The translations under genes were made by a program, and so were the position numbers. From positions 3,857 through 67,856 of the IMG/VR virus record IMGVR_UViG_3300022602_000083: a stretch of 64,000 nucleotides of DNA; one strand, written 5' to 3'. The stretch comes from a virus. Below the pieces are notes generated by a model. It did not search any database and was not told where the DNA came from. It saw only the letters and a program-made list of their open reading frames with translations. Below are positions 7,602 through 24,877 of this stretch, piece after piece (position 1 is the stretch's first letter; each line of letters begins with the position of its first letter).

Positions 7602-8549
7602 ATGACGATGAGGGTGGAGAATATGCTTATGGACTATGGAGACTTTTCAGGAGATGCCCCGGTAATTATGCCGGGGTCTACGTCCTATTTCAGTGCACCA
7701 TCAACCGAGCTTGATCCAAATCTATTTCAGGGTGAGGGTCTAAAAGACTGGGTGAGAAGTGGCATACTTTCTATGCTCTTTGAGTACCTTAGTCAGAACT
7801 TCTCTGCCCCAGAGTCATGGACTCATGTGTGGCTTGCAGGATCCGGCGTCTCATATCAATGGGCTGCTGCTAGAGATCCAGGCGATCTTGATTGCCTAGT
7901 TGGAATTAACTATATCTCATTCAGAGAAAAGAACCAAGAGTTCAAATCATTCTCTGATCAAGAGATCGCTAAGACTCTTAACGAAGGTTTCAATGCTGAG
8001 CTTATGCCTAAAACCCGTAACTGGGAAGGTTATGAACTTACTTACTATGTGAATCCACAATCTGATATTCGGGATATCAACCCGTATGCAGCATATGATC
8101 TTACTAGAGATAGTTGGACAGTGCGACCAGATCGTAGCCCACAACCTCCTTATAGCCGTGCATGGGAGAATCACGTTCAGCGTGACCATGACAACGCTGT
8201 AGAGATGGTGAAGCGTTACACAGAGGCACTTAACGAAGTACGTAACTCAAGCAACCCTGCGTATAAGATCAACGCAGAGCGTAAGCTAAAGCTAGCTACA
8301 GAACAAGCTGTGGCCTTCTATGATGACATACACCAAAGTCGTCACATTGCATTCAGTAAGATCGGAAGTGGTTATGCAGACTATAACAACTACCGCTGGC
8401 AGGCTGGAAAGCGTTCCGGTGCTATCCAGGCCTTGAGATCAATTAAGGATACTCAGACTGCCTATGAATCCGGAAAGCAGAAAGAAATCTATGGTATGGA
8501 ATTACCTACCACTGACACCTTGATTAGGAGAGCAATTCGTGGCCAATAA
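7602..8549 (+). CDS. Pol-beta superfamily nucleotidyltransferase
   Basis: WLAGSG...GDLDCLV (GS plus DxD); true start may be a few codons downstream. Confidence 0.75.
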   Translation: MTMRVENMLMDYGDFSGDAPVIMPGSTSYFSAPSTELDPNLFQGEGLKDWVRSGILSMLFEYLSQNFSAPESWTHVWLAGSGVSYQWAAARDPGDLDCLVGINYISFREKNQEFKSFSDQEIAKTLNEGFNAELMPKTRNWEGYELTYYVNPQSDIRDINPYAAYDLTRDSWTVRPDRSPQPPYSRAWENHVQRDHDNAVEMVKRYTEALNEVRNSSNPAYKINAERKLKLATEQAVAFYDDIHQSRHIAFSKIGSGYADYNNYRWQAGKRSGAIQALRSIKDTQTAYESGKQKEIYGMELPTTDTLIRRAIRGQ

Positions 8550-8649
8550 AGAGCAAAAAGGCAATTCTAACGATAAGAAAGAGGCCAAGATGAGCCTCAA
8601 AGAGAAGCGTGAAGCTAAGAAGTCGAAGAGCGAAAACAAGTATAAGTAA
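8539..8649 (+). CDS. 36 aa Lys/Glu-rich peptide (not in ORF track)
   Basis: GTG start after AGGAG; ANKEQKGNSNDKKEAKMSLKEKREAKK. Confidence 0.55.
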   Translation: MANKEQKGNSNDKKEAKMSLKEKREAKKSKSENKYK

Positions 8650-8662
8650 CTATACTTAGGGC

Positions 8663-8761
8663 ATGGATAACTATCAGTGCCAGCTGTGTGATAAGAAATA
8701 CGTAGTACCTTCGCTTGCACGACATTGTGAACAGAAGCATTTGGCTAATGAAAAGGAATAA
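8663..8761 (+). CDS. 32 aa leaderless Zn-finger peptide (not in ORF track)
   Basis: TATACT-N6-ATG; YQCQLC...RHCEQKH. Confidence 0.55.
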   Translation: MDNYQCQLCDKKYVVPSLARHCEQKHLANEKE

Positions 8762-8764
8762 CAT

Positions 8765-9229
8765 ATGGCTACCGCATTGGTGTCTCTAGAAGGCGTATTA
8801 ATGACAGAGGTCGGGGATCCAATCCCAGATGGCGTCCGTCTATTTCGTGTATTAGCAGAGCACTATCGTGTTGTCATTACCTCCGATATGTCACAAGCAA
8901 AAACTGAGCACTGGCTCCGTGGCAATATGATCTTTGGCTATGGAGATGTCTATGATGATAGGTACTTCTTTGAAGGAACACCTCTAAGACTTCGCCAGCT
9001 TGATTATGCTATGGCTCAAGGTCGTGTAGAGCTCTTTGTAGATGCAGATGCCGATTATTGTGCGGAGGCTCTTGCTAAGGGCGTACCGGCTATTATGTTT
9101 GCACACCCTAAGTTCGTAAGAAGCAAGCGTCCAGTAAAGCAGTGGGATGCTCTAAGCGCCGAGGTTGAACGTCAGCGCCTAGCCCTTCTTGATGCTCATC
9201 TAGGCAGCAGAACTAATAGGTTCGAATGA
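8765..9229 (+). CDS. HAD-fold protein with degenerate motif I
   Basis: LVSLEGVL in place of DxDGxL; PIPDG, VVITS and LFVDAD motifs. Confidence 0.6.
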   Translation: MATALVSLEGVLMTEVGDPIPDGVRLFRVLAEHYRVVITSDMSQAKTEHWLRGNMIFGYGDVYDDRYFFEGTPLRLRQLDYAMAQGRVELFVDADADYCAEALAKGVPAIMFAHPKFVRSKRPVKQWDALSAEVERQRLALLDAHLGSRTNRFE

Positions 9230-10692
9230 ACATCGTATTTATGGGCGGAGAAGTACCGTCACACCGTATTCTACTGACCAATATGGACGTAAAGCACGTT
9301 AGCGTCAACTACTACCGTCTGGTAAAGCGAGGTCTTCCAAAGACTAAGCAATACCTCTTGGCTGAGCGTTTCCCAGAAGACGTGAAGATCTATGTAGATG
9401 GTGGCGGCCATAACCTCAACGATCTAAATATGACTGAGCGTGAGCTTGAGGAGTATGCGGCTGATTACCAGGACTTCCTGGCTATCAATGCCGATAGGAT
9501 CACCATGGCTACCGAGCTAGACGCCAAAGCTCTTGGCCAGAACTGGATCAATTACCAGAGGAAGACCTTTGGTGAGGAGTTCGGTCTGGATAAGTATGCG
9601 GTTGTCTGGCACCAGGAAACCGGTCACACTGGCCTTTTCAACCTAGCATCTCAGTTCCCTAACGTCGTACTGCTTGGGGAGTCCTTAGAGGACGACACGA
9701 GCCTGTCAGCACGTTCTAGGGCCCTTCTAAGTCAGTACCCTGACCTAGAATTTCATGGGGTGGCATGTGCCAAGCCGGATAACCTACGTCAGGTTCCTCT
9801 CACTACTGCTAGCACCCTCTCTTGGCTTAGCCCAATGATGAGAGGCGAGACAATAGTATGGGATGGCACTAGACTTATCCGCTATCAGAAGAAGCAGAAG
9901 GATCAAGCTCGTCCTCGTTATAAAGCTGTAATCGAGAGAGCCGGTCTAGACTTCGACAAGATTATGAATGATGATAGTAACGAGGTAACCCGCCTCGCTA
10001 TTTGGTCCTACCTGCAGTTGGAGAAGTCTTTGAACAGTAAGTTATCTGATCACAGTGGTGGAATGGATGACCCAGGTCTAGCGGAAACCAGGGGTTCTAC
10101 TCCTGATAACAGAGGGTCTGAGGTGCGGAAAGTTTTGTCGCCTGTAGCCCCTGAAGACCTCATGACATTGCCCGTTTTTGGTGTAAATAACAAGACGATC
10201 ATTGAGAAAGATGAGGCCGGACGAGACGTTATCGCTGACGTTCCTGTCCTTCAGAGCACTCAAACTTCGTTCCGTCAATGCAATAGTTGCTTCGTGGCTA
10301 GCAATTGTCCGGCCTTCACACCGAACAGTAGCTGCAAATTTAGTCTTCCTGTAGAGGTCAAGACTAAGGATCAGCTAAAGGGATTATTGAACGCAGTTAT
10401 CGAAATGCAGGGCGCTAGAGTCGCTTTTGCACGTTTTGCTGAAGAATTGAATGGTGGATACCCAGATCCTAATACCGGACAAGAGATTGACCGCCTATTC
10501 AAATTGGTAGGTGAGGTCAAGAAGTTAGAAGAGAATAAAGAGTTCATACAGATCACAGCACAGCGCCAATCCTCTGGTGGTATGCTTTCGGCCCTCTTCG
10601 GAGACCGGGCTAATACCCTCAGAGAAATCCCCGGTGGGGCAATAAGTGAGGGTGAAGTCAGCAAGATCATAGACCAAGGTCTAAACGGATAG
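9226..10692 (+). CDS. TGT (queuine tRNA-ribosyltransferase)-like TIM barrel fused to a Cys-cluster domain
   Basis: IYVDGGG, EFHGV and ASTLSW echo the LDSG/HGFG/DSTSW motifs; C-terminal CxxC-x5-C-x8-C. Confidence 0.5.
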   Translation: MNIVFMGGEVPSHRILLTNMDVKHVSVNYYRLVKRGLPKTKQYLLAERFPEDVKIYVDGGGHNLNDLNMTERELEEYAADYQDFLAINADRITMATELDAKALGQNWINYQRKTFGEEFGLDKYAVVWHQETGHTGLFNLASQFPNVVLLGESLEDDTSLSARSRALLSQYPDLEFHGVACAKPDNLRQVPLTTASTLSWLSPMMRGETIVWDGTRLIRYQKKQKDQARPRYKAVIERAGLDFDKIMNDDSNEVTRLAIWSYLQLEKSLNSKLSDHSGGMDDPGLAETRGSTPDNRGSEVRKVLSPVAPEDLMTLPVFGVNNKTIIEKDEAGRDVIADVPVLQSTQTSFRQCNSCFVASNCPAFTPNSSCKFSLPVEVKTKDQLKGLLNAVIEMQGARVAFARFAEELNGGYPDPNTGQEIDRLFKLVGEVKKLEENKEFIQITAQRQSSGGMLSALFGDRANTLREIPGGAISEGEVSKIIDQGLNG

Positions 10693-12778: not shown

Positions 12779-12910
12779 ATGCCAGAAGATATCAATCCAG
12801 ACCTATTTGATGAAGACTTCGAAGATGACTTCGAAGATGGATTCGATGATTTCGACTTCGATGAGGATGATCTAGAAGAACTAGAGGATGGCCTCACGGA
12901 CACCGAGTAA
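12779..12910 (+). CDS. 43 aa extremely acidic peptide (not in ORF track)
   Basis: AAGGAG RBS; MPEDINPDLFDEDFEDDFEDGFDDFDFDEDDLEELEDGLTDTE. Confidence 0.7.
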   Translation: MPEDINPDLFDEDFEDDFEDGFDDFDFDEDDLEELEDGLTDTE

Positions 12911-12929
12911 AATGGCCGACACAAACATT

Positions 12930-12958
12930 AGCCCCCGACCAAATGGCCGGGGGCTTTT
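12930..12958 (+). terminator. Intrinsic terminator between convergent operons
   Basis: AGCCCCCGACC-AAAT-GGCCGGGGGCT-TTT. Confidence 0.8.
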
Positions 12959-12968
12959 GCTTGCTTCC

Positions 12969-13178
12969 TTACTCTGCAATGAACTTACCTGAGTTATCGG
13001 TTAGCTCGTAGTATGTACTATCAGATACTTCTACATCCTCATAGGCTTCGAGTTCATCTGGATAGGTACTTCCGTTTATAAGGTTTTCATAGATCTCTTT
13101 AGCGTGTTCGGTATCCTCTGCTTCGAAGATTATCGTGCCGCTACGTGTTGTATCGAATTGGGCTCTGAACTTAGGCAT
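12969..13178 (-). CDS. Small acidic protein
   Basis: AAGGAGG RBS before MPKFRAQF. Confidence 0.65.
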   Translation of the reverse strand: MPKFRAQFDTTRSGTIIFEAEDTEHAKEIYENLINGSTYPDELEAYEDVEVSDSTYYELTDNSGKFIAE

Positions 13179-13305
13179 TTGTATCCTCCTTGTATTGGCA
13201 TTCACAGTCTCTTACTTCATACGTATCGTCATCTATGAACCACATAGTCTTTCCCGTACCATAACACATCTGACAGGTACGGGGGTATAACTTAATCATG
13301 TCCAC
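13171..13305 (-). CDS. Small CxxCxGxG Zn-finger protein (not in ORF track)
   Basis: AAGGAG RBS; CQMCYGTG...CEC. Confidence 0.55.
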   Translation of the reverse strand: MDMIKLYPRTCQMCYGTGKTMWFIDDDTYEVRDCECQYKEDTNA

Positions 13306-13393
13306 AATGATTCTCCTTATCTAGCATCCCACCAAGCTCTTAGGAATAACCCAAGAACTGATCCGACTATTGCCCCTATAGTTGGTAATAGAA

Positions 13394-13660
13394 TCATGCA
13401 TCCGCCTTCCAGGTTAGCTCACCTGATAGATGTGTTGGCTTGCCTAGATCGTTTGTAGCACCGATTACCATCTTGATTGACTTGCGTGGTGTGGTTGTTA
13501 GTACATAGGTCTTAAGATATCTCTTAGCTGCAGATGGGTTAGCCCATGCAGAGTGATTGACTCCGAGCACATCATCAATAGTCATGAGCCAAGCACCACC
13601 CTTCTCGACAGATGTATTCTTAGTTAGTGTTACCTTCAGTGTTTTTGTTACTTTAGCCAT
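13394..13660 (-). CDS. Hypothetical basic protein
   Basis: GGAG RBS. Confidence 0.65.
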   Translation of the reverse strand: MAKVTKTLKVTLTKNTSVEKGGAWLMTIDDVLGVNHSAWANPSAAKRYLKTYVLTTTPRKSIKMVIGATNDLGKPTHLSGELTWKADA

Positions 13661-13669
13661 TTTGCTCTC

Positions 13670-13903
13670 CTATAGTTTTATGTTTGTTTTGAAGCCAACA
13701 TGCTTTAGATCACGCATGATGTTCTTGCCAGCTCTTGGATCACCTAGACTTTGGGCCCCAAAGAATACAGACTTACCTGTCTTAGGATTTACTACCTTGA
13801 TGTGTTGATTAGCTGTAGTTCTGACTTTATAGCCAGCAGTTTCTAATGTGCCTATTAGCTTTCTTATCTCCTTATTTCGTATATTTAATTGTGCGAATTG
13901 CAT
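13670..13903 (-). CDS. HicA-like dsRBD-fold protein
   Basis: KEIRKLI...GYKV...HIKV...DPRAGKN..RDLK pattern. Confidence 0.55.
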   Translation of the reverse strand: MQFAQLNIRNKEIRKLIGTLETAGYKVRTTANQHIKVVNPKTGKSVFFGAQSLGDPRAGKNIMRDLKHVGFKTNIKL

Positions 13904-13910
13904 TTCATCA

Positions 13911-14111
13911 TCACTCCTCAACCTCTCTTATAGACTCTATGCTTCCATACTCTCCAGGTCTAGTTAGGTCATTGATGTTGACCCACTGTTCCTTGTTCCT
14001 ATCGAATACTTTAAGAGCCCACTCTCTATTGTTTAGATCTTGTTGGTCATCAATACGCCACCTCTTGAGCTTTACTCTGAAGGTTATACGTAAGTCATGT
14101 AGGTCATCCAT
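13911..14111 (-). CDS. Hypothetical protein
   Basis: AGGAGG RBS. Confidence 0.6.
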   Translation of the reverse strand: MDDLHDLRITFRVKLKRWRIDDQQDLNNREWALKVFDRNKEQWVNINDLTRPGEYGSIESIREVEE

Positions 14112-14161
14112 ATGTTTTTCCTCCTACTTTTAGTCTAGCCGATTGTTTGTGTTGAGTCAAA

Positions 14162-14617
14162 CTACTCCTCATCATCACCAATCTGGATATCTTTCTGACA
14201 TGCCTTAACCACCACTTGATCCAGCTCAGCTCGCATTAAGCTCAGTGCCTCAGCAGGGATCACGTCAAAGGCACGATCAAGCATCTGTGCCAATGAATAG
14301 TCTGAATTGATACTAAGTGCATACTCAATCATCTTGACTGCAGAGTCTAAGTTGCCACGCTCATACTCGAAGGCTGCATTGACTGTGATGAACGGCACAC
14401 CGTCTTCCTTCGTAGTATTTACAGCCATGTAGCGTACGAACTCAATAGACTCATCAAGACTGAACCTAGCAGGCATACCTAGGACCCAATCACGAACCTG
14501 TAGATCATTGTTAACGCCAAAGATAACCTTCTCAAGCCTCTCATCTTCAAGAGGGATGATGTTATTGATGCTATCTTCGATTAGATTAACTACCTCTTTG
14601 CGTGTTGTAGTTATCAT
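14162..14617 (-). CDS. DUF4192-like helical protein
   Basis: DLQVRD and ALSINSDYSLAQML motifs. Confidence 0.6.
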   Translation of the reverse strand: MITTTRKEVVNLIEDSINNIIPLEDERLEKVIFGVNNDLQVRDWVLGMPARFSLDESIEFVRYMAVNTTKEDGVPFITVNAAFEYERGNLDSAVKMIEYALSINSDYSLAQMLDRAFDVIPAEALSLMRAELDQVVVKACQKDIQIGDDEE

Positions 14618-15070
14618 TTACTTACCTTTCTTCTCGGTTGTACGGAATGTGCCTTCTGGTGTAGGCCATTGGTATGGTAGATCTTCAGCCACATCAAAAG
14701 CATAGTGCTCTGGGAGCTTACGCTTTAGATTGGACTGATGGCTTTCATGGAACTTCTCTGCACCTAACCACCAAGGCTTACTGACCGGACTAAGCTTGAA
14801 CCGTTTGACTAAGTCCAGTACCTGTTCCTTGGTGTTGTCTTGAAAGCCACGCTTTACCCACTCATCGCACATGGCTACTGTGTAGGCTGCTAGCTTTCCC
14901 TCGTGTCCACGCCACATTACTGAGGCTGGGTGATTACGCCATCCCTGGGTGATACCTAGGTTTGCTCGTAGGATCTGAAATGCTTCTACACGCTGCTTAC
15001 CAAGCCTCTGATTATCCAGAGACTTAGCAACCTGCTTGAAGTCTGCATAGGGTAGGAATGTGTTAACCAT
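14618..15070 (-). CDS. Pyrimidine-dimer DNA glycosylase family (DenV-like)
   Basis: TFLPY, LDNQRLGKQRVE, HPASVMW, EWVKRG and SHQSNL. Confidence 0.85.
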   Translation of the reverse strand: MVNTFLPYADFKQVAKSLDNQRLGKQRVEAFQILRANLGITQGWRNHPASVMWRGHEGKLAAYTVAMCDEWVKRGFQDNTKEQVLDLVKRFKLSPVSKPWWLGAEKFHESHQSNLKRKLPEHYAFDVAEDLPYQWPTPEGTFRTTEKKGK

Positions 15071-15180
15071 TAGTCCTCCTCATCTCCAAAGTAACAGTCC
15101 CAGCAGGTAACTCTTTGACTGTGTACAACATAGGAGTCGTCTTGGCCTAACACATCTTCACATAGACTGCATGTAATCAT
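15070..15180 (-). CDS. Small Zn-finger peptide (not in ORF track)
   Basis: CSLC...CWDC, GGAGG RBS. Confidence 0.5.
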   Translation of the reverse strand: MITCSLCEDVLGQDDSYVVHSQRVTCWDCYFGDEED

Positions 15181-15332
15181 TCGTCCTCCAATAGCATAGG
15201 GATTAGATCTTCAGCCCCATGTTTGATTAGTAGTTGGCGTACTGTTTCTTTGTTTGTGTTGAGCTGCTCAATCTCACGCTTTCTAAGCATCTCACTTAGC
15301 CAGCGTGCGGGGTCCTCTTGTCTCAGGCTCAT
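15177..15332 (-). CDS. Small hypothetical protein (not in ORF track)
   Basis: ATGA-coupled 51 aa ORF. Confidence 0.5.
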   Translation of the reverse strand: MSLRQEDPARWLSEMLRKREIEQLNTNKETVRQLLIKHGAEDLIPMLLEDE

Positions 15333-15520
15333 GCTAATACCGTTAGCACTACACCGTTATCCTGTGCCCATTCAACTGGCTCAGAGATAGACTCGATTGT
15401 TAGGTTGGCTCCACCATCTACTAAGTCATCAGAGATATGTAGTAGAAACATTTGTGCTGCTTCATAGTCATTGAAAGGACCTATCAATGACTCAGTGATA
15501 CTGTCGAATAGAACGTACAT
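15329..15520 (-). CDS. Hypothetical protein
   Basis: TAATG coupling. Confidence 0.6.
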   Translation of the reverse strand: MYVLFDSITESLIGPFNDYEAAQMFLLHISDDLVDGGANLTIESISEPVEWAQDNGVVLTVLA

Positions 15521-17325
15521 TATCTTCCTCTCTTTCTCATTGAACCTACGACTACAGACCTAGCAAACGGCAGAAGATCACGGGCGCTAGCTACTCGACC
15601 ATAGATCTCAACACCATGCTTGAACTTGTCATCGGTATACCCATAACGCTCTTCGTACCATACACGCTCTCTATCCTCCATGATTAAGGTCATGGTGGTT
15701 AGTACTCCACGCTTACTGATACGTTCAATAACTTCATCATTCTTGTCGGCATCGAAGACACCGTCAGTAATAATGAATAGCATCTTATTCTTCTTACGTG
15801 AAGACATAAGAAGTTGCTCAGCTGCTAGCAATGATGAGTACGGATTAGTACCACCATTACCATAGATGAACTTGTAGGTAGTTCTATCTGCAGACTCCTC
15901 ACGACGATACGCTGTCTCAGCAGCATCATCGAAGGCATAGACTGTTACCAGACCGCCTACTTGTTCTAGAGCACGCTTGATAGTCCAGCATGCAATAGAG
16001 GCTTCACGATCGTTGCCACCGCCCATAGAACCTGAGCGATCAACTAAGATCACAGCTTCGATATCAGCACCATCAGTACCCTCATCCCAACGATCGAAGG
16101 CTTCATCAATCTCACAGCCTCTGATTACACGTTGGACATTGAGCCTACCACTGGCTTCTTGCTTATGCCAAGCTGGTTCGCACTCATCACGCAAGCGTTC
16201 TAGCTCGTGTGCGAACTTACGATATACAGCCATAGCTTCAGCAGGGACGCTAGTCTTATCGAACCTACCATTCTTGATAGTATCGTTGTGCTTACCATCG
16301 CCTCCGACAATAACCTTTTGCTTTGTCTTGACGTCAGCTTGCACATCCTTACGTGCTAGTACATCCTCAACTACTTTATCGAGCATGTCGTGAACACTGT
16401 CTGGAATACCACCTAGACTTTCATGATGACCTTCTCCATCTAGCTTACCTCCTGGATTATCTGTATTGCGGTTGGCCATATCCAACGCATCCTGCTGTGT
16501 GGCAGGGGATTTGTTTGTGTTGGACGGCGTAGGTGACTCAGCTTTACCACTGTTCTTACCTTGGTTAGCGTCACGCTCCTGCGCCTTGCCAGGATCAGGA
16601 CGACCCTTACTTACTGGGTCACGAGAGGTACAACCATTCATACCTTCTGGTGTCTTATCAGACCAGTTAGCAAGCACCTCATTCTTGAATCGTCTAATCA
16701 ATTCAAGACCCTTGTCGTAGTCCTTAGGGAATGCTAATACACGATACTGATCAACGATGTCAACGATTGCGGGGATTAGTGAAGGCTCTGCGAACATATC
16801 TCTGAACGCTTCACGTACCTCAATCGGTAGATACCTACGACCACGCACCAGCATATAGTTACCCATAGCATCTTCAGGTGTGCGGCCTAGCCATCTAGCC
16901 ACAGTTGCAGTGAGGAATGGTGCAATAGATGGATACCTAGATACGAACAGCGTTTCGATACGCTGATCCTCTAGCATATTAGCTGCTTGCATCAAGTCTT
17001 CCTCAAGCACCTTCTTCATGAAGACTGTGCCTTTGCGTGGTGTATACAAGTGATGGGCTAACTCGTGGAAGTTAAGACCATTTACCTGAGTCAACGCATC
17101 AAGATCAATGTCTTCTATCTGATTGGCATTGATAAAGATTGCTTGACCATCTGACCAAGCAGGTGCAGGACCATCAGGAACAACATTCACAATCACTGGG
17201 TCACCAGTGATTACTCTGTCTGCCTGTTCATACACACGGCATAACGCATTAAGTCTCACAGCACGAAGCTGTGCTTCCTCTGTACGCTCTGCTATATACC
17301 TTTCATCTAAGTTGTCTTCGAACAT
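15520..17325 (-). CDS. vWA-domain protein with N-terminal HExxH (CobT-like)
   Basis: FHELAH, NMLEDQRIE, MIDAS VDRSGSM, GGT and IITDG. Confidence 0.85.
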   Translation of the reverse strand: MFEDNLDERYIAERTEEAQLRAVRLNALCRVYEQADRVITGDPVIVNVVPDGPAPAWSDGQAIFINANQIEDIDLDALTQVNGLNFHELAHHLYTPRKGTVFMKKVLEEDLMQAANMLEDQRIETLFVSRYPSIAPFLTATVARWLGRTPEDAMGNYMLVRGRRYLPIEVREAFRDMFAEPSLIPAIVDIVDQYRVLAFPKDYDKGLELIRRFKNEVLANWSDKTPEGMNGCTSRDPVSKGRPDPGKAQERDANQGKNSGKAESPTPSNTNKSPATQQDALDMANRNTDNPGGKLDGEGHHESLGGIPDSVHDMLDKVVEDVLARKDVQADVKTKQKVIVGGDGKHNDTIKNGRFDKTSVPAEAMAVYRKFAHELERLRDECEPAWHKQEASGRLNVQRVIRGCEIDEAFDRWDEGTDGADIEAVILVDRSGSMGGGNDREASIACWTIKRALEQVGGLVTVYAFDDAAETAYRREESADRTTYKFIYGNGGTNPYSSLLAAEQLLMSSRKKNKMLFIITDGVFDADKNDEVIERISKRGVLTTMTLIMEDRERVWYEERYGYTDDKFKHGVEIYGRVASARDLLPFARSVVVGSMRKRGR

Positions 17326-17336
17326 TTGTAGCCCCC

Positions 17337-18713
17337 TTATACGTTATATGCTGCTGCTACTACCCATTGTTGAAGTTCTTCATCAAGTGTTGGTGTCTTC
17401 TCAGCTTCTACTGCTTCTTCCTCAATTACTGGGGCAATACCGAAGTCTGATTGGATGTTGTACTGATGTGTCTGGAATACCAAACGAACTGATGCTTGCT
17501 CTTCAGCACCGAAGTGAGCGATGAAGTTTTCCACTGCGAACTCATAGCCAAGCTTGCCTACGAAGTCACTGAACTCAATGAGCATGTTTGTGCTGATTGG
17601 GGTGTCGTACTGACCCTTGGCTGCTTCTGCACGAAGCTGCTTAACTACTGTACGCAATGCCTTGCTTGCTACGAGCTTTTCCTCGACTGCATCATCGTAG
17701 TCCCACGCTAGCTGAATATCAAAGCGGTTACGCATTGCAAAGTTCAGCGGTGTTGTACCAATGTAATCTGGATTCATAGTAGCGAAGATGGTTAGATCTG
17801 GATGAGCCTCAATAGTTTCACCCATGTGATCTAGCAGTGTGATAGTACGACGACCATCAGTCAATGGATACAAGGTGGTATAGATCTTAGGACTAATGAA
17901 GTTCATCTCGTCTAGCAGCAACACGCCACCGTTACGAACCACATCGGTTACTGGACCATCAATCCAACCATAACCACCATTACCATCAGGAATGAAGCCA
18001 CCGAATAACTGGCGAGATTCCATAGATGCGTTACCAGATACTGTAGCCATACGCAGATCATTTTCAGCAGCCCATGCTTCTACAGCTGTTGTCTTACCTG
18101 GACCAGTTGGGCCATAGATAAGAACGTTAATGCCTTCGGCACGTGCGATATCAAAGGTCTTGAAGTCTTCGACTCCATACACCTTACGATGCACATAGCG
18201 TTCTGCCAGGTGCTTAGATGGAACTGTTGCTAACGACACGTTAAAAGCGGGGGTGCTGTCGTCTGTTTGTGTTGGCACAGGTACTACCAACGGACTTGTT
18301 GTTGCTCGGTTATCTATCACGTATTCCTCCAGGTTGTCGTCTCCTACCTCAACTTGAGAATAGAAGTCTTGGATTACATCTGCAATGGATGTCTTCATAT
18401 CCACTGTAGATTTATTGTGTGCACTTACTGCTTTAGTAGTAAGGACGGGAGAGTATCCCTTGGCATCAATAGCACGCAAGTCTGCTGCTGTCACATATAC
18501 ACCAACAGGCCTGTGAGTAACTACTTCGCCATCCTTAAAGGATGTATTTAGATTGGCAAGGGTGTCAGCCTCCCACTTATTGTGGGTACCCTTGGTTCCA
18601 TCAGTAAGACGTGAATAGACATTGATAGCTCCCTTGTAAGGAACTAGTAATATCTGACGTCTATGATTATTCATAGATGCTTCATATGACTCTGTGAACA
18701 TTGCGATGTCCAT
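17337..18713 (-). CDS. MoxR/CbbQ/CobS-like AAA+ ATPase
   Basis: GPTGPGKT, LLLDEMN, ATMNP and RNRF. Confidence 0.9.
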   Translation of the reverse strand: MDIAMFTESYEASMNNHRRQILLVPYKGAINVYSRLTDGTKGTHNKWEADTLANLNTSFKDGEVVTHRPVGVYVTAADLRAIDAKGYSPVLTTKAVSAHNKSTVDMKTSIADVIQDFYSQVEVGDDNLEEYVIDNRATTSPLVVPVPTQTDDSTPAFNVSLATVPSKHLAERYVHRKVYGVEDFKTFDIARAEGINVLIYGPTGPGKTTAVEAWAAENDLRMATVSGNASMESRQLFGGFIPDGNGGYGWIDGPVTDVVRNGGVLLLDEMNFISPKIYTTLYPLTDGRRTITLLDHMGETIEAHPDLTIFATMNPDYIGTTPLNFAMRNRFDIQLAWDYDDAVEEKLVASKALRTVVKQLRAEAAKGQYDTPISTNMLIEFSDFVGKLGYEFAVENFIAHFGAEEQASVRLVFQTHQYNIQSDFGIAPVIEEEAVEAEKTPTLDEELQQWVVAAAYNV

Positions 18714-18961
18714 TAGTACTCTCCTTCTTCATCATTGAGGATACCGTTCAGTCTACCCTCTAAGACTGTTGCAAGAGCAAACGCTGCTTGCTTCTCTCTA
18801 GTCCACTCAGTAATGAGTTCGTAGAGAAAACCTTTATCTTCTGCTTTATCAATGATCTTTGATACCTGCATGCAGGCGTAATCAATGAACTGTTCCATCT
18901 CTTCAGCTGGAATGCCGCTCATTTCTCCATCAAAGCCATCATAATCACATTGGTGACACAT
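18713..18961 (-). CDS. Hypothetical acidic protein
   Basis: AAGGAG RBS. Confidence 0.6.
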   Translation of the reverse strand: MCHQCDYDGFDGEMSGIPAEEMEQFIDYACMQVSKIIDKAEDKGFLYELITEWTREKQAAFALATVLEGRLNGILNDEEGEY

Positions 18962-18979
18962 GTTGTTCTCCTTATTTAG

Positions 18980-19140
18980 ATATTAGGCTGGCTTACCTCC
19001 GGTGCCCGCAGGGAAATCTGGACGCCGCAACTTTGGCTCAACATCGTCGCACAAAGTAACGTACCTTTGTGGCTGGTTTCTTGCGTACTCGTCTATAGGA
19101 GTGAGATATATACAAGAGGTTGGCTTAGCCAGCCCAACAT
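18980..19140 (-). ncRNA. Candidate multibranch structured RNA
   Basis: 14 bp closing stem AUGUUGGGCUGGCU/AGCCAGCCUAAUAU with two G-U pairs valid only on the - strand; internal hairpins; no ORF. Confidence 0.55.
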
Positions 19141-19143
19141 TAT

Positions 19144-19473
19144 CTATTCAGTAATTATTACTTCGCTTACATCATCTGACTCTAGATTGCTTCTATAGTC
19201 AGCCTCAAAGATTTCATTGATTCCTACATGAAAACGATTGAGGATACGACGAGGGCGTGAATTGCGACGCTGTGTTGATTCATAGCATCCCATGTAGCTC
19301 TCGTGGTAGTATTCATGTCCTTTAAACCGTAGGTTCTTGATTACGGTATAAGGTTGAGCTTTTGCTATTCCTTGCCCACAGTTACCACAAGTAACGTAGT
19401 CACTGAGGGCATCGTAGCCCTTAGCATCCTCGTCAGTTCGTGAGTTAACTGTGGCTACCTTTTTCTTTGGCAT
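19144..19473 (-). CDS. Zn-binding hypothetical protein
   Basis: CGNC...H..C; AGAAAGGG RBS. Confidence 0.65.
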   Translation of the reverse strand: MPKKKVATVNSRTDEDAKGYDALSDYVTCGNCGQGIAKAQPYTVIKNLRFKGHEYYHESYMGCYESTQRRNSRPRRILNRFHVGINEIFEADYRSNLESDDVSEVIITE

Positions 19474-19507
19474 TGGGTTCCCTTTCTCAGGAATTGTTTG
19501 TGTTGAG

Positions 19508-19981
19508 TTAGTTCTGCATCAATGATGCAGACATTGCTGTACTGCTCTGCAGTAACCCTTTAAAGGTCTCTGCTTTCATGCCATTAGCTAAACCAACGGC
19601 AATATTTTTGATGAGGCTGCTCGGTGTTGTACTTGGTGTGCGTAGAACGATTGCTTTAGCAAGATCTGTTTTATCATACGCATACGCAATCGCCGCACCA
19701 TACTCACACAATAGAGTTAGGTTTGAATCATCTGGTGAACATGAACTAATGGTTCTTGTTAGTACTTTCAAACTCTGACCAGGATCAGCGTTAACTAGAT
19801 GGTTTAACACCGCATCTCTGAAGTTACTATCCCTAAGAGAGTTTTCTAACAATGAGGTAGGTAAGTACCCTATTTGTAACCCATTCGCATGCTCTGCGAC
19901 ATTCTTTATCTCAGTAACCTGAAGCAGAGATACCTTCTTATCTTTATCGTAAGCAACTAGATCCTTATATTGATTGGACAT
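19508..19981 (-). CDS. Helical protein, weakly DUF4192-like
   Basis: DSNFRDAVL and AAIAY; resembles 14162..14617. Confidence 0.5.
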   Translation of the reverse strand: MSNQYKDLVAYDKDKKVSLLQVTEIKNVAEHANGLQIGYLPTSLLENSLRDSNFRDAVLNHLVNADPGQSLKVLTRTISSCSPDDSNLTLLCEYGAAIAYAYDKTDLAKAIVLRTPSTTPSSLIKNIAVGLANGMKAETFKGLLQSSTAMSASLMQN

Positions 19982-20699
19982 GGTTTGCTAACATCCTTTC
20001 TAGTTCAGTTAGTGGTTTCTTATATATGTTGCCATTCTGTACTCTGATAGGGGAACCATCCCAAAGTACAGAAACCTTGTTTGCGCCATACAGGCGTTTC
20101 TTTCTACCGCTGCAGCTATAGCAAACTTGAGCACGTTTAATAGTATGTCCTTTGATAATGCCGTGCTCACATGGAACGTAATGCCATCTTGATCCCGCAT
20201 ATCCCATAGACATATCAGGGTGTTTTGTACAGGATAGAGCACCTTCGTCATTGAAGGTACCGTCCCAACAAGTATTGCCCTGACACCAGCTATCCACAAG
20301 ACCAGTAGATGAGCATTGCCTACAACCCATCAACTTTCCTGGCTTGGTAGGTGCATCACGCTCGGTGATATAGAACTTAAAATTACGGCGGTTAACTTGC
20401 ACACCGGCATACTTCCAGATCGTATATCTAAGAGACTGTGAATCAAGGGAACTGAATGATCCACCCCAATGTGTTGATACCTGACCACCTTCAAGTGTCA
20501 TAGTATCGTCAGGGTGGATAGTGATAAGTGGGTGATAATTAGTCCATTTATTAACTATTTGGATGTCACCAGATTTATTCCACTTATTGGCATATCGAAC
20601 ACGATTACGCTGACCGTCATACAATGTGCGGTCCCATTTACTACGCCCATTGGCAAGATAGTCTTGCCACTCAGCGTATGTATATACTCTCCAACTCAT
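19965..20699 (-). CDS. Protein with Cys-rich Zn-binding insert
   Basis: CRQCSSTG...CYSCSG plus further Cys/His. Confidence 0.65.
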   Translation of the reverse strand: MSWRVYTYAEWQDYLANGRSKWDRTLYDGQRNRVRYANKWNKSGDIQIVNKWTNYHPLITIHPDDTMTLEGGQVSTHWGGSFSSLDSQSLRYTIWKYAGVQVNRRNFKFYITERDAPTKPGKLMGCRQCSSTGLVDSWCQGNTCWDGTFNDEGALSCTKHPDMSMGYAGSRWHYVPCEHGIIKGHTIKRAQVCYSCSGRKKRLYGANKVSVLWDGSPIRVQNGNIYKKPLTELERMLANHVQSI

Positions 20700-20998
20700 T
20701 GTGCCTCCATTGTCTCGAATAAGCCTACTGGCTCTGGGTCTGACATGTCAACATACTGGAACTCAATAAGTTGCTCCAGCGTGCGTTCGGATGTTTGTGT
20801 TGGGACATCATCTGTCCACCAAGTAGATGTGAGCGAGAGCACACTTGACTCAGGCTTGAGTAGTTTAAGTGCTACACCTAAGCCATCAACTAAACCATCA
20901 AAGTATGCACGGCTAAGCTGGTGCTCCTCGAAGCGTAGGTCATCCTGTGCTTCAATGATGCCACGTTCAATAGCTTTAACTATCTTCTTACGCTTCAT
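20696..20998 (-). CDS. Hypothetical protein
   Basis: ATGA coupling. Confidence 0.6.
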   Translation of the reverse strand: MKRKKIVKAIERGIIEAQDDLRFEEHQLSRAYFDGLVDGLGVALKLLKPESSVLSLTSTWWTDDVPTQTSERTLEQLIEFQYVDMSDPEPVGLFETMEAQ

Positions 20999-21255
20999 GC
21001 TTGTGCCTTAACTAGGATGCTGTGTGCATCAGCCTTGAATACTTTACCCGTCTTCCAATGAGGAATTGATGGGTGTGTTGCTGTACCGCCAGCAGCCTTC
21101 CAAGCTTCACGCTTTTCATAACTCTTGGCTGTACGACCATTGACATGGGTGAAGTTTGTCTTCTCCATCTGCTTTGGTCCTGGGTTCTTCTTAACGGCTT
21201 TGCCGTTCTTGCGATCACCAGAGGTGCTTACTTTTGCTTGTGTAACTTTTGCCAT
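20995..21255 (-). CDS. Basic hypothetical protein
   Basis: GAAAGGGG RBS, Lys-rich. Confidence 0.65.
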   Translation of the reverse strand: MAKVTQAKVSTSGDRKNGKAVKKNPGPKQMEKTNFTHVNGRTAKSYEKREAWKAAGGTATHPSIPHWKTGKVFKADAHSILVKAQA

Positions 21256-21276
21256 TTTAATGGCCCCTTTCGGAGG

Positions 21277-21429
21277 TTAGTTGGTTGCCTCTACACCTAC
21301 GTGTAGAGTAGTGATGCCGTCATTTAACAGCATCAATGCTTCTTGTCTTGTGCAGCCATGAAATAGTTGGGCCTCAATAATAAATAAGGCTTTATCCAAC
21401 CAGTTATCTGTTGTAATTTCAACTGACAT
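21277..21429 (-). CDS. 50 aa protein (not in ORF track)
   Basis: AGAAAGG RBS; MSVEITTDNWLDK... Confidence 0.55.
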   Translation of the reverse strand: MSVEITTDNWLDKALFIIEAQLFHGCTRQEALMLLNDGITTLHVGVEATN

Positions 21430-21458
21430 TGCTATGACCTTTCTCACGGTATAAGTAA

Positions 21459-21488
21459 TGAGCAGTTTTAATAGACATGCTCAGGTCT
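21459..21488 (-). ncRNA. H-type pseudoknot motif, copy 1
   Basis: AGAC-CU-GAGCA-U-GUCU-AUUAAAAC-UGCUC-A. Confidence 0.55.
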
Positions 21489-21560
21489 TCTAGTGTTGAG
21501 GGGAAAAGGGGGAATTTCGTGCCACGGCACTCCCATACACCCACAGGTACCTCACTAGCG

Positions 21561-21633
21561 TGCCCCCGGCTGGAATTGAACCAGCAACACCCACCTTAGG
21601 ACGATGGTGTTCTATCCATTGAACTACGGGGGC
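21561..21633 (-). tRNA. tRNA-Arg (anticodon CCT)
   Basis: Full cloverleaf: GCCCCCG/CGGGGGC acceptor, GTTC/GAAC D-arm, loop GT-CCT-AA, GCTGG-TTCAATT-CCAGC; no encoded CCA. Confidence 0.9.
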
Positions 21634-21636
21634 AGG

Positions 21637-21669
21637 TGAGCAGTTTTACCTCAGGTCATACTCAGGACC
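21637..21669 (-). ncRNA. H-type pseudoknot motif, copy 2
   Basis: GGUC-CU-GAGUA-U-GACC-UGAGGUAAAAC-UGCUC-A, ending 3 nt before the tRNA 5' end. Confidence 0.55.
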
Positions 21670-21677
21670 AAATCTAT

Positions 21678-21965
21678 CTATGACAATAGACCGTGCAGTT
21701 CTTCTGAAGAAAGGATGCGGTCAGTTGGTTGAGGCCAATTAACCCAGCCCTCTGGCTGTTCCTGTCCTTCTTCAAGCCATGGGGAAATACGAACTGCGTA
21801 AGGAACCTCCATTAGTCCTACTTCTGGATTTCCTGTGCCATTTTTGAATGCTTCTAGCGTAGCCTTGTAGATATCGTCTACATTATTGGCCGCTTCTACA
21901 TCCATAATGACTTGTGTAGCAACCATCATGGACACACGATGTGTGTATGTCGTTTGCTTAGTCAT
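21678..21965 (-). CDS. Hypothetical protein
   Basis: AGAAAGGG RBS before MTKQTTY. Confidence 0.65.
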   Translation of the reverse strand: MTKQTTYTHRVSMMVATQVIMDVEAANNVDDIYKATLEAFKNGTGNPEVGLMEVPYAVRISPWLEEGQEQPEGWVNWPQPTDRILSSEELHGLLS

Positions 21966-22063
21966 TTGTATCCCTTTCTGTATGTTTTGCGGATTGTTTG
22001 TGTTGGTGCATGCATGGTTTATACTCCCCATACTATGTGAGTTTATGTGCATACTATTCCTGT

Positions 22064-22360
22064 AACACTACTTGGGACAAGCCATCATCGTGTTGAGCCC
22101 ACGAAGTCTCAACGAGGATGAAGGTTCAACCAGGACGGGTCGGATACACCTATTAGCGAACTCATAAGAGTTGCGTTCGGAGCCTTAGCAGAACGTCTCC
22201 CTAACTCTTCCTTTCGTGCGGATATGTATGTCTTGGATTGCTATGCAATCCGAGGCCAGGACAGACCACAGTGATTACTCATCGAGTGTGCTGTCGAGGC
22301 TTCGCATGGCATAGAAAATAGGCGGGGGAGCGTACCCTCTGTCGCTCAACCCCGCCTTTC
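22064..22360 (+). ncRNA. Candidate ~300 nt rod-shaped sRNA, antisense to the early operon
   Basis: ORF-free; TACTAT at 22052; nested stems whose G-U pairs favour the + strand; terminal hairpin 22320-22360. Confidence 0.5.
22316..22360. terminator. Bidirectional terminator-like hairpin
   Basis: AAAAT-AGGCGGGG-GAGCG...CGCTC-AA-CCCCGCCT-TTC. Confidence 0.65.
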
Positions 22361-22507
22361 TCAGTTAAAGTTCTACTGCTATCCAAAAGCATAGGAAATC
22401 TAAACTAATGTAATATTTATCAATAGAGAAGCCAACGGCAAAGCGTTTAGACATGCCCATCTGTAACCAATACTTGTTGGCTATTCTAATCTCAGTACTC
22501 TTTATCA

Positions 22508-22762
22508 TTAGTGCTCACGCTCCTCATATGCCTGTAATGCATACTGTAGGTTGTTGAAATACTCACCACGATGGCAGGTACCACGGGCGTGGTTGTATGT
22601 CCACACTACAAAGGGGTCATATTCACTGCGTGGGGCTAGGCACAGCACCACATCGGTGTATTCGTCGGCTTGTTTGTGTTGGAGCACTGTTGCCCCTGTG
22701 GACTTACCACCATCACCCTGCAATACTATGCCGGGTTTGATTGTGCTTACATCTTCTCCCAT
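22508..22762 (-). CDS. Hypothetical phage protein
   Basis: GGAGG RBS; PFVVW...GEYF. Confidence 0.65.
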   Translation of the reverse strand: MGEDVSTIKPGIVLQGDGGKSTGATVLQHKQADEYTDVVLCLAPRSEYDPFVVWTYNHARGTCHRGEYFNNLQYALQAYEEREH

Positions 22763-22995
22763 TATTCCTCCAGTAGGTCTATGTCTACCACCGGTGTGGT
22801 AGAACGGATTTTGCGGGTGCCATTGAGCGACCACTCAATAAGCATAGGTTCACCAATAACAGCATGCTTAATCTGTATGTATGGTGTCCACTCTAAATCC
22901 CTGACTAAGAACTCACCTTGGTCAGGAATACGGCGGAATATCTTTTTCTTTGGGTCTATCTCATAGGTACTGTTCTTAGTTATTACTTGGTACAT
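22762..22995 (-). CDS. Hypothetical phage protein
   Basis: AAGGAG RBS; TKNSTYEID...RSTTPV. Confidence 0.65.
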   Translation of the reverse strand: MYQVITKNSTYEIDPKKKIFRRIPDQGEFLVRDLEWTPYIQIKHAVIGEPMLIEWSLNGTRKIRSTTPVVDIDLLEE

Positions 22996-23126
22996 GCCAG
23001 TCTCCTTGTACGATGGCTTGCTGTGTCTTAAGTGTGTGTACATCTAACTTAAGTCGGGTTATCTCAAGAGCCATAGCCTGTGCTTGTATAGTCAGTTCCA
23101 CTAGGCGTTGCTCCATTGCTCTCTTC

Positions 23127-23459
23127 TTACGCACTGATTCTCTCCTTTCTGTATAGGTTGGCTAATACCTGCTCTAATGAAAAGCAGGGTGTATTCATTG
23201 TGATAGCACCACGCTCTTCGGGTGTAGTGCCACCTTGGATTGAGTAACGATCATCTCTACTGACTGCGTCAGCAAGGCATTGTTGCTTGACTGGACAATC
23301 CGCACAGATACGCTTAGCTTCTGCTGCACGAGCCAGTTTGGCTGGGCCACGCTCATATACGCCGTAGTAGAAGATGTCCGTGTCCATACCTTTGCACTTG
23401 GCATCTTCGTGCCAACTGAGGTCTGCCCAGTCTGCTGAATGGTAGATTGCATCGCTCAC
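23127..23459 (-). CDS. whiB: WhiB-family Fe-S transcription factor
   Basis: W...AKC...AKRICADCPVKQQCL...GGTTPEER. Confidence 0.9.
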   Translation of the reverse strand: MSDAIYHSADWADLSWHEDAKCKGMDTDIFYYGVYERGPAKLARAAEAKRICADCPVKQQCLADAVSRDDRYSIQGGTTPEERGAITMNTPCFSLEQVLANLYRKERISA

Positions 23460-23614
23460 TCTTTGTCCTCTCTGAAATCCCAATCTTCTTGGTCAATCTT
23501 GTACTGACGCTCGATCAGGATAGCAGCTAACGACAGTACGATCAACAGTACGATAAATAATCCAAACATAATGCTTCCTTTCTTATAGAGGGTAAGAGGC
23601 ACACAGGATTACAT

Positions 23615-23779
23615 TTACGCCAGCACTTGGCGACCTGTGTACCTCTCGTCCGCTACAACTGGAGAAAAATCGGCGGGGACTTTGACAGTCTTAGATAAAG
23701 AGATAGAAGAAGAAGAACAACCACAAGATAGAGTTACCTTGATAGTAATCTTATGAGTAGTAGTGATAGTAGTAGTCAT
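23615..23779 (-). CDS. 54 aa Thr/Ser-rich peptide (not in ORF track)
   Basis: ATGA-coupled ORF MTTTITTTHKITIKVTLSCGCSSSS... Confidence 0.4.
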   Translation of the reverse strand: MTTTITTTHKITIKVTLSCGCSSSSISLSKTVKVPADFSPVVADERYTGRQVLA

Positions 23780-23979
23780 CTGCCAGAACTCCTTCCATTT
23801 AATAGGTCAGGGCTATCTGCCTTGACATAGGTAAAGCCTTGCTTAGGCATCAAGATAAGGCGAAAGCCCGCCATACGATCTCTAATGCCCTTAGATACAC
23901 ACTCACTAGCCATACAATAGGCATAGCCAGCCTCTATACGCTCAGGGCTAACCAAAGCGTCACAATACGGACAATTCAT
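23776..23979 (-). CDS. DksA/TraR-like Zn-finger small protein
   Basis: CPYC...ERIEAGYAYC...C; AGGAGG RBS. Confidence 0.55.
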   Translation of the reverse strand: MNCPYCDALVSPERIEAGYAYCMASECVSKGIRDRMAGFRLILMPKQGFTYVKADSPDLLNGRSSGR

Positions 23980-24017
23980 AATAACCTCCTAGTAGTAATA
24001 AAGTAATAGCCATACAA

Positions 24018-24113
24018 CACCAGTAATAACAGCACCCAAAGAGTTCACCAGTAATAACCTGACAGCCCCAAAGACTGCACTAGTAATAACCTGATAACAG
24101 CACCCGAAGGGTA
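24018..24113 (+). repeat. Three imperfect tandem repeats
   Basis: CACYAGTAATAAC at 24018, 24046 and 24078, each followed by AGC(A)CCC(A/G)AAG. Confidence 0.8.
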
Positions 24114-24309
24114 CGCTAGACCTGGTTGTACGGCTATGAAGCCACACGGCTACGCAGCCAGTGGCTTAAAATGAGTGGGGTAATCTCTCGCTTGGGGATT
24201 GCAGGACTGTAATCGCTGCTACAGGTGTTCCACCCCATCTATACCCATAGGGGCTACCTATGAGCATAGAAAGGGCGGGGGACAATACAGCCCCCGACCT
24301 TCCACCCTA

Positions 24310-24792
24310 TTAGACTAGGGAATCTACCTTGATAGAAGGCGCAAGCAACGCCAATTTCTCACGGATAGACATAAGCAAGAGGGATTCCTTCTCGCTATCC
24401 TCTGAAACAGCCAGAGTTAGATTGTTCAGAGCAGAGTTGATAGCCTTGTATTGGGCTAACAACGATGGTGCTGGCTTGACTGCCTGTGACTTAACACGCA
24501 TCAACTCGGCAATCATAGCCGTCTCGTTATCCTGCACTACAATCTCGTTGTAATGCTCCCCAATAAATGCGGGGGACAACAGGCTCACAGCGATACCCGA
24601 TTGAGTATGGTAGTAAGCAGCATAGACGAAGCCAACAGCAGACTTCTTGGTGAAATAGCCCAAGATGTCTGATGGCTTAGCGTCTGGGTACGCCTTGAAT
24701 AGTGGGGAGATAGTGTCTATCTTCCACTGCTTGGCATTGTTAAACAAGCCGGCAATAGCCTTGGCTTGGTCCTGCATTGTGGTTGTGGTCAT
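24310..24792 (-). CDS. First gene of the early operon, hypothetical
   Basis: GGAGAGG RBS before MTTTTMQDQ. Confidence 0.65.
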   Translation of the reverse strand: MTTTTMQDQAKAIAGLFNNAKQWKIDTISPLFKAYPDAKPSDILGYFTKKSAVGFVYAAYYHTQSGIAVSLLSPAFIGEHYNEIVVQDNETAMIAELMRVKSQAVKPAPSLLAQYKAINSALNNLTLAVSEDSEKESLLLMSIREKLALLAPSIKVDSLV

Positions 24793-24824
24793 AATGACCT
24801 CTCCGCTAGGGACACTCGCCCTAG

Positions 24825-24877
24825 TCGCCCCCACCTATGGGGTCGAACCATAGCCACGCCTATCGTGTGGGGAGCGA
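24825..24877 (-). ncRNA. tRNA-elbow-like three-way junction
   Basis: Closing stem, ACG-AUAGG-CGU D-like hairpin and CUAUGG-UUCGACC-CCAUAG T-like hairpin. Confidence 0.45.

Follow-up and report, generated by a model that had tools for sequence, protein, structure and literature searches.

The window examined here is a stretch of 64,000 nucleotides (nt) taken from the IMG/VR virus record IMGVR_UViG_3300022602_000083 (positions 3,857 to 67,856), a 67.9-kb record that is approximately 69% complete. The only minus-strand block of this genome is an operon of about 12 kb, which encodes WhiB, a tRNA-Arg, a CobS-like AAA+ protein, a CobT-like VWA protein, a DenV-type glycosylase and many small open reading frames (ORFs), and which also contains stretches of 180-420 nt without long ORFs. 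An 11-mer, CAACACAAACA, is present in eight perfect copies on the sense strand of this operon, all between 14144 and 22681, and in a ninth copy on the plus strand. The full consensus, YCRACAYAAACAA, has 13 conserved positions, each of them A or C on the sense strand. This word is a real and strongly selected cis-signal of a whole family of uncultured freshwater actinophages of about 100 kb, with a defined polarity and placement, and it is kept letter for letter in all the relatives examined. Its copies and the features associated with them are collected in Table 1.

The layout of the genome is best seen in a complete relative, G002, which has two transcription arms only. The longer arm, of about 88 kb, carries the structural genes of a contractile tail together with PolA, RecA, DnaB, DnaG, an SNF2 helicase and a class II ribonucleotide reductase; the shorter one, of 12.5 kb, is the word-bearing operon. 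The hosts are probably abundant lake actinobacteria, judging from the WhiB genes, the lake and pond metagenomes of origin and a G+C content of about 45%. Each complete genome of the family encodes two to three WhiB genes.

Table 1. Copies of the word and associated features in the window
Feature	Position	Strand	Context
Operon bearing the array	12969..24834	-	Only minus-strand block of the genome
Terminal copy, tolerated variant CGACACAAACA	12917..12927	+	6 nt past the stop of the last plus-strand gene
GC-rich hairpin, 11 pairs	12930..12955		Junction of the convergent operons; begins 2 nt past the terminal copy
One-mismatch copy CAAAACAAACA	13681..13691	-	Directly upstream of gene 13394-13660; function doubtful
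Perfect copy tCAACACAAACAa	14144..14154	-	Intergenic; begins 2 nt past the TGA of gene 14162-14617
Perfect copy	15251..15261	-	Within a 51-residue ORF (15177-15332), frame NTNK
Perfect copy	16512..16522	-	Within the CobT-like VWA gene 15520-17325, about 800 nt in, frame NTNK
One-mismatch copy CAGCACAAACA	17585..17595	-	In the CobS-like gene; function doubtful
Perfect copy	18264..18274	-	Hypervariable linker of the CobS-like AAA+ gene 17337-18713, frame PTQT
Perfect copy	19495..19505	-	Intergenic; begins 2 nt past the TAA of gene 19508-19981
Perfect copy	20792..20802	-	Within gene 20696-20998, frame PTQT
Perfect copy	21995..22005	-	12 nt downstream of a TATAAA element
Perfect copy	22671..22681	-	Within ORF 22508-22834, frame QHKQ; first of the array, some 2.1 kb into the operon
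Candidate HNH_3 ORF, 97 residues	33476-33769		24.9 bits for a cut-off of 24.8; about 1.7 kb upstream of the large terminase gene
Perfect remote copy cCAACACAAACAa	39598..39608	+	Within, and co-directional with, plus-strand gene 39531-40295
C6T variant with full flanks CCAACATAAACAA	59966..59976	-	Antisense to the plus-strand tail gene 59538-60467

Copies of the word in the window

An earlier note on this DNA, made from the letters alone, had listed nine perfect copies and three copies with one mismatch, at 12917 (+), 17585 (-) and 34636 (-). All were recovered at the coordinates it gave, and its gaps between the operon copies are correct. Two one-mismatch copies, at 13681 and 59966, both on the minus strand, were missing from its list. 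Altogether, the window has 14 matches with at most one mismatch, whereas 100 dinucleotide shuffles gave 1.66 on average and never more than 5. The 11-mer is the commonest non-repetitive 11-mer of the genome to which the window belongs, and no further perfect copy occurs elsewhere in the full 67.9-kb record. Low complexity was rejected as an explanation on the basis of a reversed-word control, which yields 0-1 copies per genome.

The spacing of the operon copies is quasi-regular. The coefficient of variation of the gaps is 0.26, a value matched by 0.07% of random placements, or by 1.9% of them when gaps shorter than 500 bp are disallowed. The periodicity proposed initially can be retained in this loose sense for the window; a strict period is not required, as relatives carry from one to 11 copies per locus.

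Sequence anatomy and selection on the nucleotides

Over 141 distinct contexts, conservation is limited to position -1 (C in 88% and T in 12%), the 11-mer itself and position +11 (A in 77%). A mobile element or a longer repeat was rejected, since conservation stops outside these limits, and a sigmaA promoter was rejected as well, as no -35/-10 partner of the word was found over these contexts. The 10 nt that follow the word are poor in T (0.10, for a background of 0.24) and rich in C (0.34, for a background of 0.21), a bias that returns close to background by about +30. The word being made of A and C only and the next 10 nt being T-poor, this stretch therefore cannot pair with itself. Pairing with a phage or host RNA was rejected too: the sole complement of the word in the phage genomes is the terminal copy, and the host genomes sampled are devoid of it.

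The word is also remarkably exact. In 25 loci, 173 perfect sense copies were counted versus 25 with one mismatch. The C6T change makes up 12 of the 21 distinct one-mismatch forms, and change is tolerated at two positions only (C6T and A2G). The A2G variant is found in the relative L183 beside two canonical copies, in sense orientation at 3277, 4680 and 6144 (+) and as the terminal copy at 12339 (-); the terminal copy of the window is the same variant. The A3G change carried by the copy at 17585, on the other hand, was seen once among the 21 unique one-mismatch forms, and the function of this copy is for that reason doubtful.

The position of several copies within genes raises the question of a constraint exerted by the protein. 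The three frames reported earlier for these copies (PTQT, xNTNx and QHKQ) stand. Judged by the longest ORFs, six of the eight operon copies lie within ORFs, and one of them, at 21995, probably precedes the true start codon. Twenty distinct CobS-like genes were aligned by codon. In the indel-rich, hypervariable linker of this protein, the word forms the longest invariant run of the alignment (11 nt, the next being 8), and elsewhere 34 of 444 third codon positions are invariant. Furthermore, synonymous shuffles of 13 operon ORFs produce on average 0.66 copies and at most four, versus six observed, a number that none of 3000 shuffles reached; the frequency of the word far exceeds a codon-preserving null, the check that the earlier note had asked for. 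An explanation by protein coding was rejected on these grounds, the invariant run in an indel-rich linker, the use of three frames and the shortfall of the shuffles. Because this longest invariant run sits in a variable linker and because synonymous shuffles are beaten, selection acts on the nucleotides.

Conservation in related phages

Relatives were collected by searching viral contigs with the CobS-like protein, which gave 24 loci, and by an alignment-based search, which gave 35 more at 51-79% identity. The identity of the CobS-like protein across these 59 loci ranges from 51 to 80%. All 59 keep the word on the sense strand of the same operon, with a total of 330 copies (1-11 per locus). 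The 253 gaps measured in distinct arrays have a minimum of 502 bp and a median of 1313 bp, and 184 of them fall within 800-1900 bp. The motif, its orientation and its approximate spacing are thus all conserved, which the earlier note had made the touchstone of its proposal. Site positions are conserved between relatives too, the copy in the CobS linker being the most constant of the family (54 of 57 loci). In some clades, this copy, one further copy and the terminal copy are the only ones. In five whole relatives (89-100 kb), the word is restricted to a block of about 10 kb, one inverted copy just past it and at most one remote copy; the remote copy of the window, at 39598, is not orthologous to that of G002. 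The existence of lineage dialects was rejected: none appeared in the 35 further loci, across which two substitutions only are tolerated, and the word persists unchanged down to 51% identity of the CobS-like protein.

In the GenBank phage collection, megablast returned no match and blastn only a 76-nt tRNA-like one, and a 14-mer scan of viral contigs revealed mostly chance singletons. The matches listed by a literature text search for the string belong to unrelated primer or oligonucleotide contexts. The freshwater actinophages described in PMC10202952 measure 39 kb and lie outside the word-bearing family. In three unrelated viral contigs (L079 4773-5025, L080 13095-14115 and L046 9405-9993), the 11-mer forms closely packed tandem clusters in which the gaps range from 12 to about 450 bp; they are probably CA-rich tandem repeats, not a spaced array.

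A word used by the host genome at large, such as Chi, KOPS or an uptake sequence, was rejected, as no enrichment was seen in 401 actinomycete genomes, a sample that may not include the true host. A copy is present in 82 of these genomes, mostly one to three times, like the reversed-word control. Three unpublished genomes (G269, G013 and G021) add one or two copies each, and the negative result is independent of them. Higher numbers were seen in G016, with four copies, and in G228, a 5.4-Mb actinomycete genome in which seven co-oriented perfect copies, three of their gaps close to 4.6 kb, occupy a single 45-kb stretch (G228:C1:2854729-2899637) and none occurs elsewhere. This cluster may represent a repeated gene module or some other element. 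The CobS-like gene was not found in G016 or G228.

Placement and polarity

A crude ORF call places 50 of 142 distinct sites between genes. Most of these start 1-2 nt past the upstream stop codon, and this abutment holds even if the next start codon is 50-200 nt away. Indeed, the distance between the word and the next start ranges from 10 to more than 200 nt, and the order of the elements at intergenic copies is always the same: stop, word, optional hairpin, ribosome-binding site, start. Many of the sites called in-gene but located less than 50 nt from an ORF start are probably intergenic as well. True in-gene copies are located in one small gene and in linkers of the CobS-like gene (at about +450) and of the CobT-like gene (at about +830), the only two that are long. 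In the window, the copy at 19495 ends 21 nt ahead of the ATG of gene 19144-19473. The copy at 21995 is followed, about 35 nt downstream, by a start codon with a good ribosome-binding site and preceded by a stretch of about 310 nt (22053-22364) in which no minus-strand ORF reaches 60 codons. Downstream of sense copies, hairpins that reach -12 kcal/mol or stronger show no enrichment (10.9%, versus 6.9% for controls); upstream, they are somewhat enriched (17.9%).

The earlier note described all its copies as co-directional with local transcription. The antisense variant at 59966 is a possible exception to this. The orientation of the long arm is shared by the terminal copy, by the remote copy of the window and by those of G001 and G002 (the gene context being checked for the window and G002). 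It is shared as well by an additional copy of the L169 clade, located among minus-strand genes 1 nt past a stop codon. Two departures were encountered, position 11450 of L165, which has poor flanks, and position 59966 of the window, which is either a chance match or a true exception to the rule; no antisense variant of this type was found in G002. Polarity consequently follows transcription and not one physical strand.

Of the 49 loci with enough sequence, 44 have the inverted terminal copy ahead of the terminator of the convergent operon. The stop codon that closes the long arm lies 6-12 nt before it, and a strong GC hairpin and its T-run follow at 2-6 nt. A hairpin of -12 kcal/mol or stronger comes after 93% of the 42 unique terminal copies. 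In the window, the last plus-strand gene encodes a 43-residue acidic peptide (12779-12910), and the junction hairpin has its T-run on the plus side, the complement of the word providing a T-rich tail on the minus side. In many relatives, this hairpin keeps its loop, CTCAATTAAGAG, besides its stem, which exceeds the needs of a plain terminator.

With an array on one side of the hairpin at 12930-12955, a conserved single copy on the other and all arrows converging on it, this junction could evoke a replication fork trap of the Ter type, where copies pointing to the hairpin between the two arms of the genome (about 88 kb and 12.5 kb) would stop the forks that run head-on to transcription. This is a very improbable reading. 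Plain co-orientation with transcription would produce an indistinguishable layout, proteins of the Tus or RTP type were not seen, and such a trap would hamper rolling-circle replication.

Some copies also coincide with promoter-like elements. A TTGACY-N17/18-TANNNT promoter, in its strict form, has its spacer filled by a copy in 12 of 60 loci, all of one clade. The window belongs to these, its copy at 14144 separating the two elements of a sigmaA-like promoter, TTGACT-N17-TAGACT. A TATAAA element precedes a copy by 6-32 nt in 13 of 60 loci, and the copy at 21995 is one such case. These contexts speak for polar roadblocks or operators on duplex DNA, comparable to stoperators, at which a phage protein made later in the infection would halt polymerases or forks in one direction and thereby shut off or insulate the sole operon that runs counter to the rest of the genome. 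The asymmetry of the 13-mer, its alignment with transcription, its multiplicity within an operon and its bias toward intergenic sites are consistent with this mechanism, and so is the terminal copy, found where read-through into the opposing operon needs to be stopped. The operator-like contexts are however clade-specific, the sites are confined to one operon while those of L5 are distributed genome-wide, and neither the A/C-only make-up nor the abutment of stop codons is accounted for. Moreover, tyrosine and serine recombinases (PF00589 and PF00239) were not found in any of five genomes, positive controls working, and an immunity repressor is unlikely since there is no integrase. No helix-turn-helix, repressor-like or DNA-binding family turned up either among the top-25 Pfam families per batch of the complete relative, in line with the initial remark that no L5-type repressor is evident. 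Taken together, these data make roadblocks unlikely.

Search for a protein reading the word

The proteins first proposed as binders are poor candidates: relatives of the first operon protein (24310-24792) and of WhiB occur in 5 and 4 of 24 loci, respectively, while the word is universal. The former has no sequence match in the PDB, and no WhiA helix-turn-helix domain was found.

The absence of an integrase, of a sigma domain and of an HNH domain of the PF01844 type (0 of 5 genomes) gives these phages a lytic look. A small ORF of another HNH family, HNH_3 (PF13392), is present near the terminase genes in four of the five genomes and was not found in G001. HNH proteins beside terminase genes usually serve packaging. 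In the window, the corresponding ORF scores just at the cut-off (Table 1); it could be a packaging HNH or a candidate nickase.

This last observation bears on another reading, in which a phage nickase would cut one strand of the mature DNA at the word, as in T5, tf and the phiKMV group. Restricting the copies to the non-template strand would leave early transcription unhindered until the nicks are repaired. The word is exact and asymmetric, tolerates change at two positions and is overwhelmingly perfect in sense copies; its positions are kept between relatives, its copies are gathered in one early-looking block, and the lifestyle looks lytic. The HNH_3 ORF, however, adjoins the terminase genes, is borderline in score and was not found in G001. 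Contigs of four sequencing runs span the sites at 14144, 15251, 16512, 18264, 19495 and 20792, and their breaks do not fall at the word, in a type of data that cannot reveal nicks. In phage tf, 14 nicks occur at TACTRTGMC; they affect a single strand, 11 lie in the early half of the genome, and relatives have them at similar positions (PMC3517423). The word resembles these nick motifs, and those of T5 and phiKMV-like phages, in being exact, short and asymmetric with few variants, concentrated in the early part of a lytic-looking genome, kept in position among relatives and enigmatic in function (PMC3517423). Those motifs are restricted to one strand and irregularly spaced, whereas the present word occurs on both strands and is aligned with transcription. 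Conserved copies on the other physical strand thus depart from the one-strand rule of T5 and tf, and nicking leaves unexplained the abutment of stop codons and the association with a terminator. Strand-specific nicking is possible on this evidence, if rather doubtful.

The word could also be a promoter for a phage-directed form of RNA polymerase, which would define a temporal class of genes in the manner of T7 class II or T4 late promoters. Its sites are co-oriented with the genes and mostly located just upstream of them, straight after the previous stop; the hairpin that follows the word, where present, could stabilize the 5' end of a message, and the first 10 nt are T-poor. An exact word kept over a deep divergence is likewise a property of T4 late promoters. 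A -10-like element is nevertheless missing, and the best-conserved extra copy aims into a terminator. No Sigma70_r2 domain (PF04542) was detected in any of five genomes with working controls, and no T7-type polymerase (PF00940) in the same five, in a search whose control was also silent. A DxDxD motif is missing from the large proteins without family hits, one of which, of 787 residues, looks low-complexity. A promoter appears quite improbable in these conditions.

A proposed elongation signal recognized as a single strand

The reading tentatively favored here makes YCRACAYAAACAA a cis-signal that is polar with respect to transcription and is recognized either in the RNA or on the non-template DNA strand. 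It is favored because polarity follows transcription on two strands, because the word abuts stop codons and because its sense face consists of A and C only. According to this proposal, one very conserved factor would bind the word in single-stranded form, in the nascent RNA or in the non-template strand once displaced, and the word would act on the elongating polymerase or on the message at the gene ends of the minority-strand operon. In the stretches of this operon devoid of long ORFs, the polymerase would run without ribosomes. Recognition as a single strand and an effect on elongation or on the fate of the message are both inferred. The function would be that of a reiterated relative of the elongation-control words of the ops and boxA type.

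Several observations weigh against this proposal. The most conserved copy is intragenic, where ribosomes cover the message, and some clades get by with two or three copies. An anti-terminator would have no use for a terminal copy that adjoins, at 2-6 nt, a strong intrinsic terminator. The word has no similarity to the boxA or ops consensus, and no NusG-, N- or Q-like protein was recognized among the proteins scanned. A full variant lies antisense in a tail gene. Finally, the data are equally compatible with recognition of the word as duplex DNA.

Comparison with known systems

The word resembles several known kinds of signals and has the defining features of none. The ops element, recognized by RfaH, and boxA/nut, recognized by Nus factors, are words of about 12 nt which are strictly conserved, oriented with transcription, read as a single strand and used to mark long operons. 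They are located in leaders or spacers, once or twice per operon, and boxA is repeated within rRNA operons. The present word is similarly short, oriented and placed on the sense strand of a long operon, but it is unrelated in sequence, recurs up to 11 times, is also found within genes and beside a terminator, and has no cognate factor among the proteins scanned. It is doubtful, although conceivable, that it constitutes an elongation-control signal of a new kind, that is, a loading word like ops or boxA renewed about every 1.3 kb, even in coding sequence, and read by an unrecognized factor. If this were true, processivity or the fate of messages in these lytic actinophages would be governed by a word repeated along the operon instead of by one element in the leader.

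The operators and stoperators of Cluster A mycobacteriophages, bound by L5 gp71, belong to temperate phages with an immunity repressor; their sites are distributed genome-wide and their words differ between subclusters. Both systems feature an asymmetric 13-mer in an actinophage, with many copies oriented with transcription, preferentially located in short intergenic spaces and in part overlapping promoters. Unlike stoperators, the word belongs to lytic-looking phages, marks one operon, is invariant in the family, enters coding linkers and is quasi-regularly spaced. The spread through both genome arms that is typical of Cluster A was not found, as five whole relatives confine their copies to about 10 kb and one or two others.

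Sets of phage promoters, for example those of T7 class II or the late promoters of T4 (TATAAATA), are comparable as exact words co-oriented with genes, roughly 1-2 kb apart in one block and sometimes intragenic. They differ in that no cognate polymerase or sigma factor was found here and that one conserved copy fires into a terminator. In Cluster K mycobacteriophages, gene boundaries are marked by conserved 13-mers, the start-associated sequences, which include the ribosome-binding site, are tied to the start codon and have no known reader. The word is likewise a 13-mer at actinophage gene boundaries, but it is tied to the upstream stop, mostly at 1-2 nt, with a variable distance to the start, and is also found within genes.

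Exact oriented words running through one block of a phage genome are rare, and stoperators, nick motifs, phage promoters and boxA arrays each revealed a distinct control mechanism. The word must matter for infection, because it is conserved letter for letter even when inserted into protein linkers. As a 13-nt bait, it provides a precise and cheap handle for finding its reader.

Other features of the genome

The window also contains, at 7602-10692, what may be a DNA guanine-exchange modification module of the DpdA type, as suggested by protein similarity. Its 488-residue protein (9226-10692) matches phrog_887, annotated as a queuine tRNA-ribosyltransferase, over its full length (E 3e-50); upstream of it lie a weak DUF6932-like ORF and a 154-residue ORF without assignment. 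Three TGT triplets are present in the complementary, G/T-only strand of the word. NTP-transferase- and HAD-type proteins are encoded somewhere in the genome of G002. This relative (L154-L158) encodes in addition Hsp20 and KTSC-domain proteins, and has matches to the proteasome-subunit and HicA families. The 787-residue protein mentioned above (30229-32592) is rich in Lys, Glu, Pro and Gly and has no match in Pfam, PHROG, the PDB or a protein atlas; at a similar map position, G002 has an ORF of 1142 residues.

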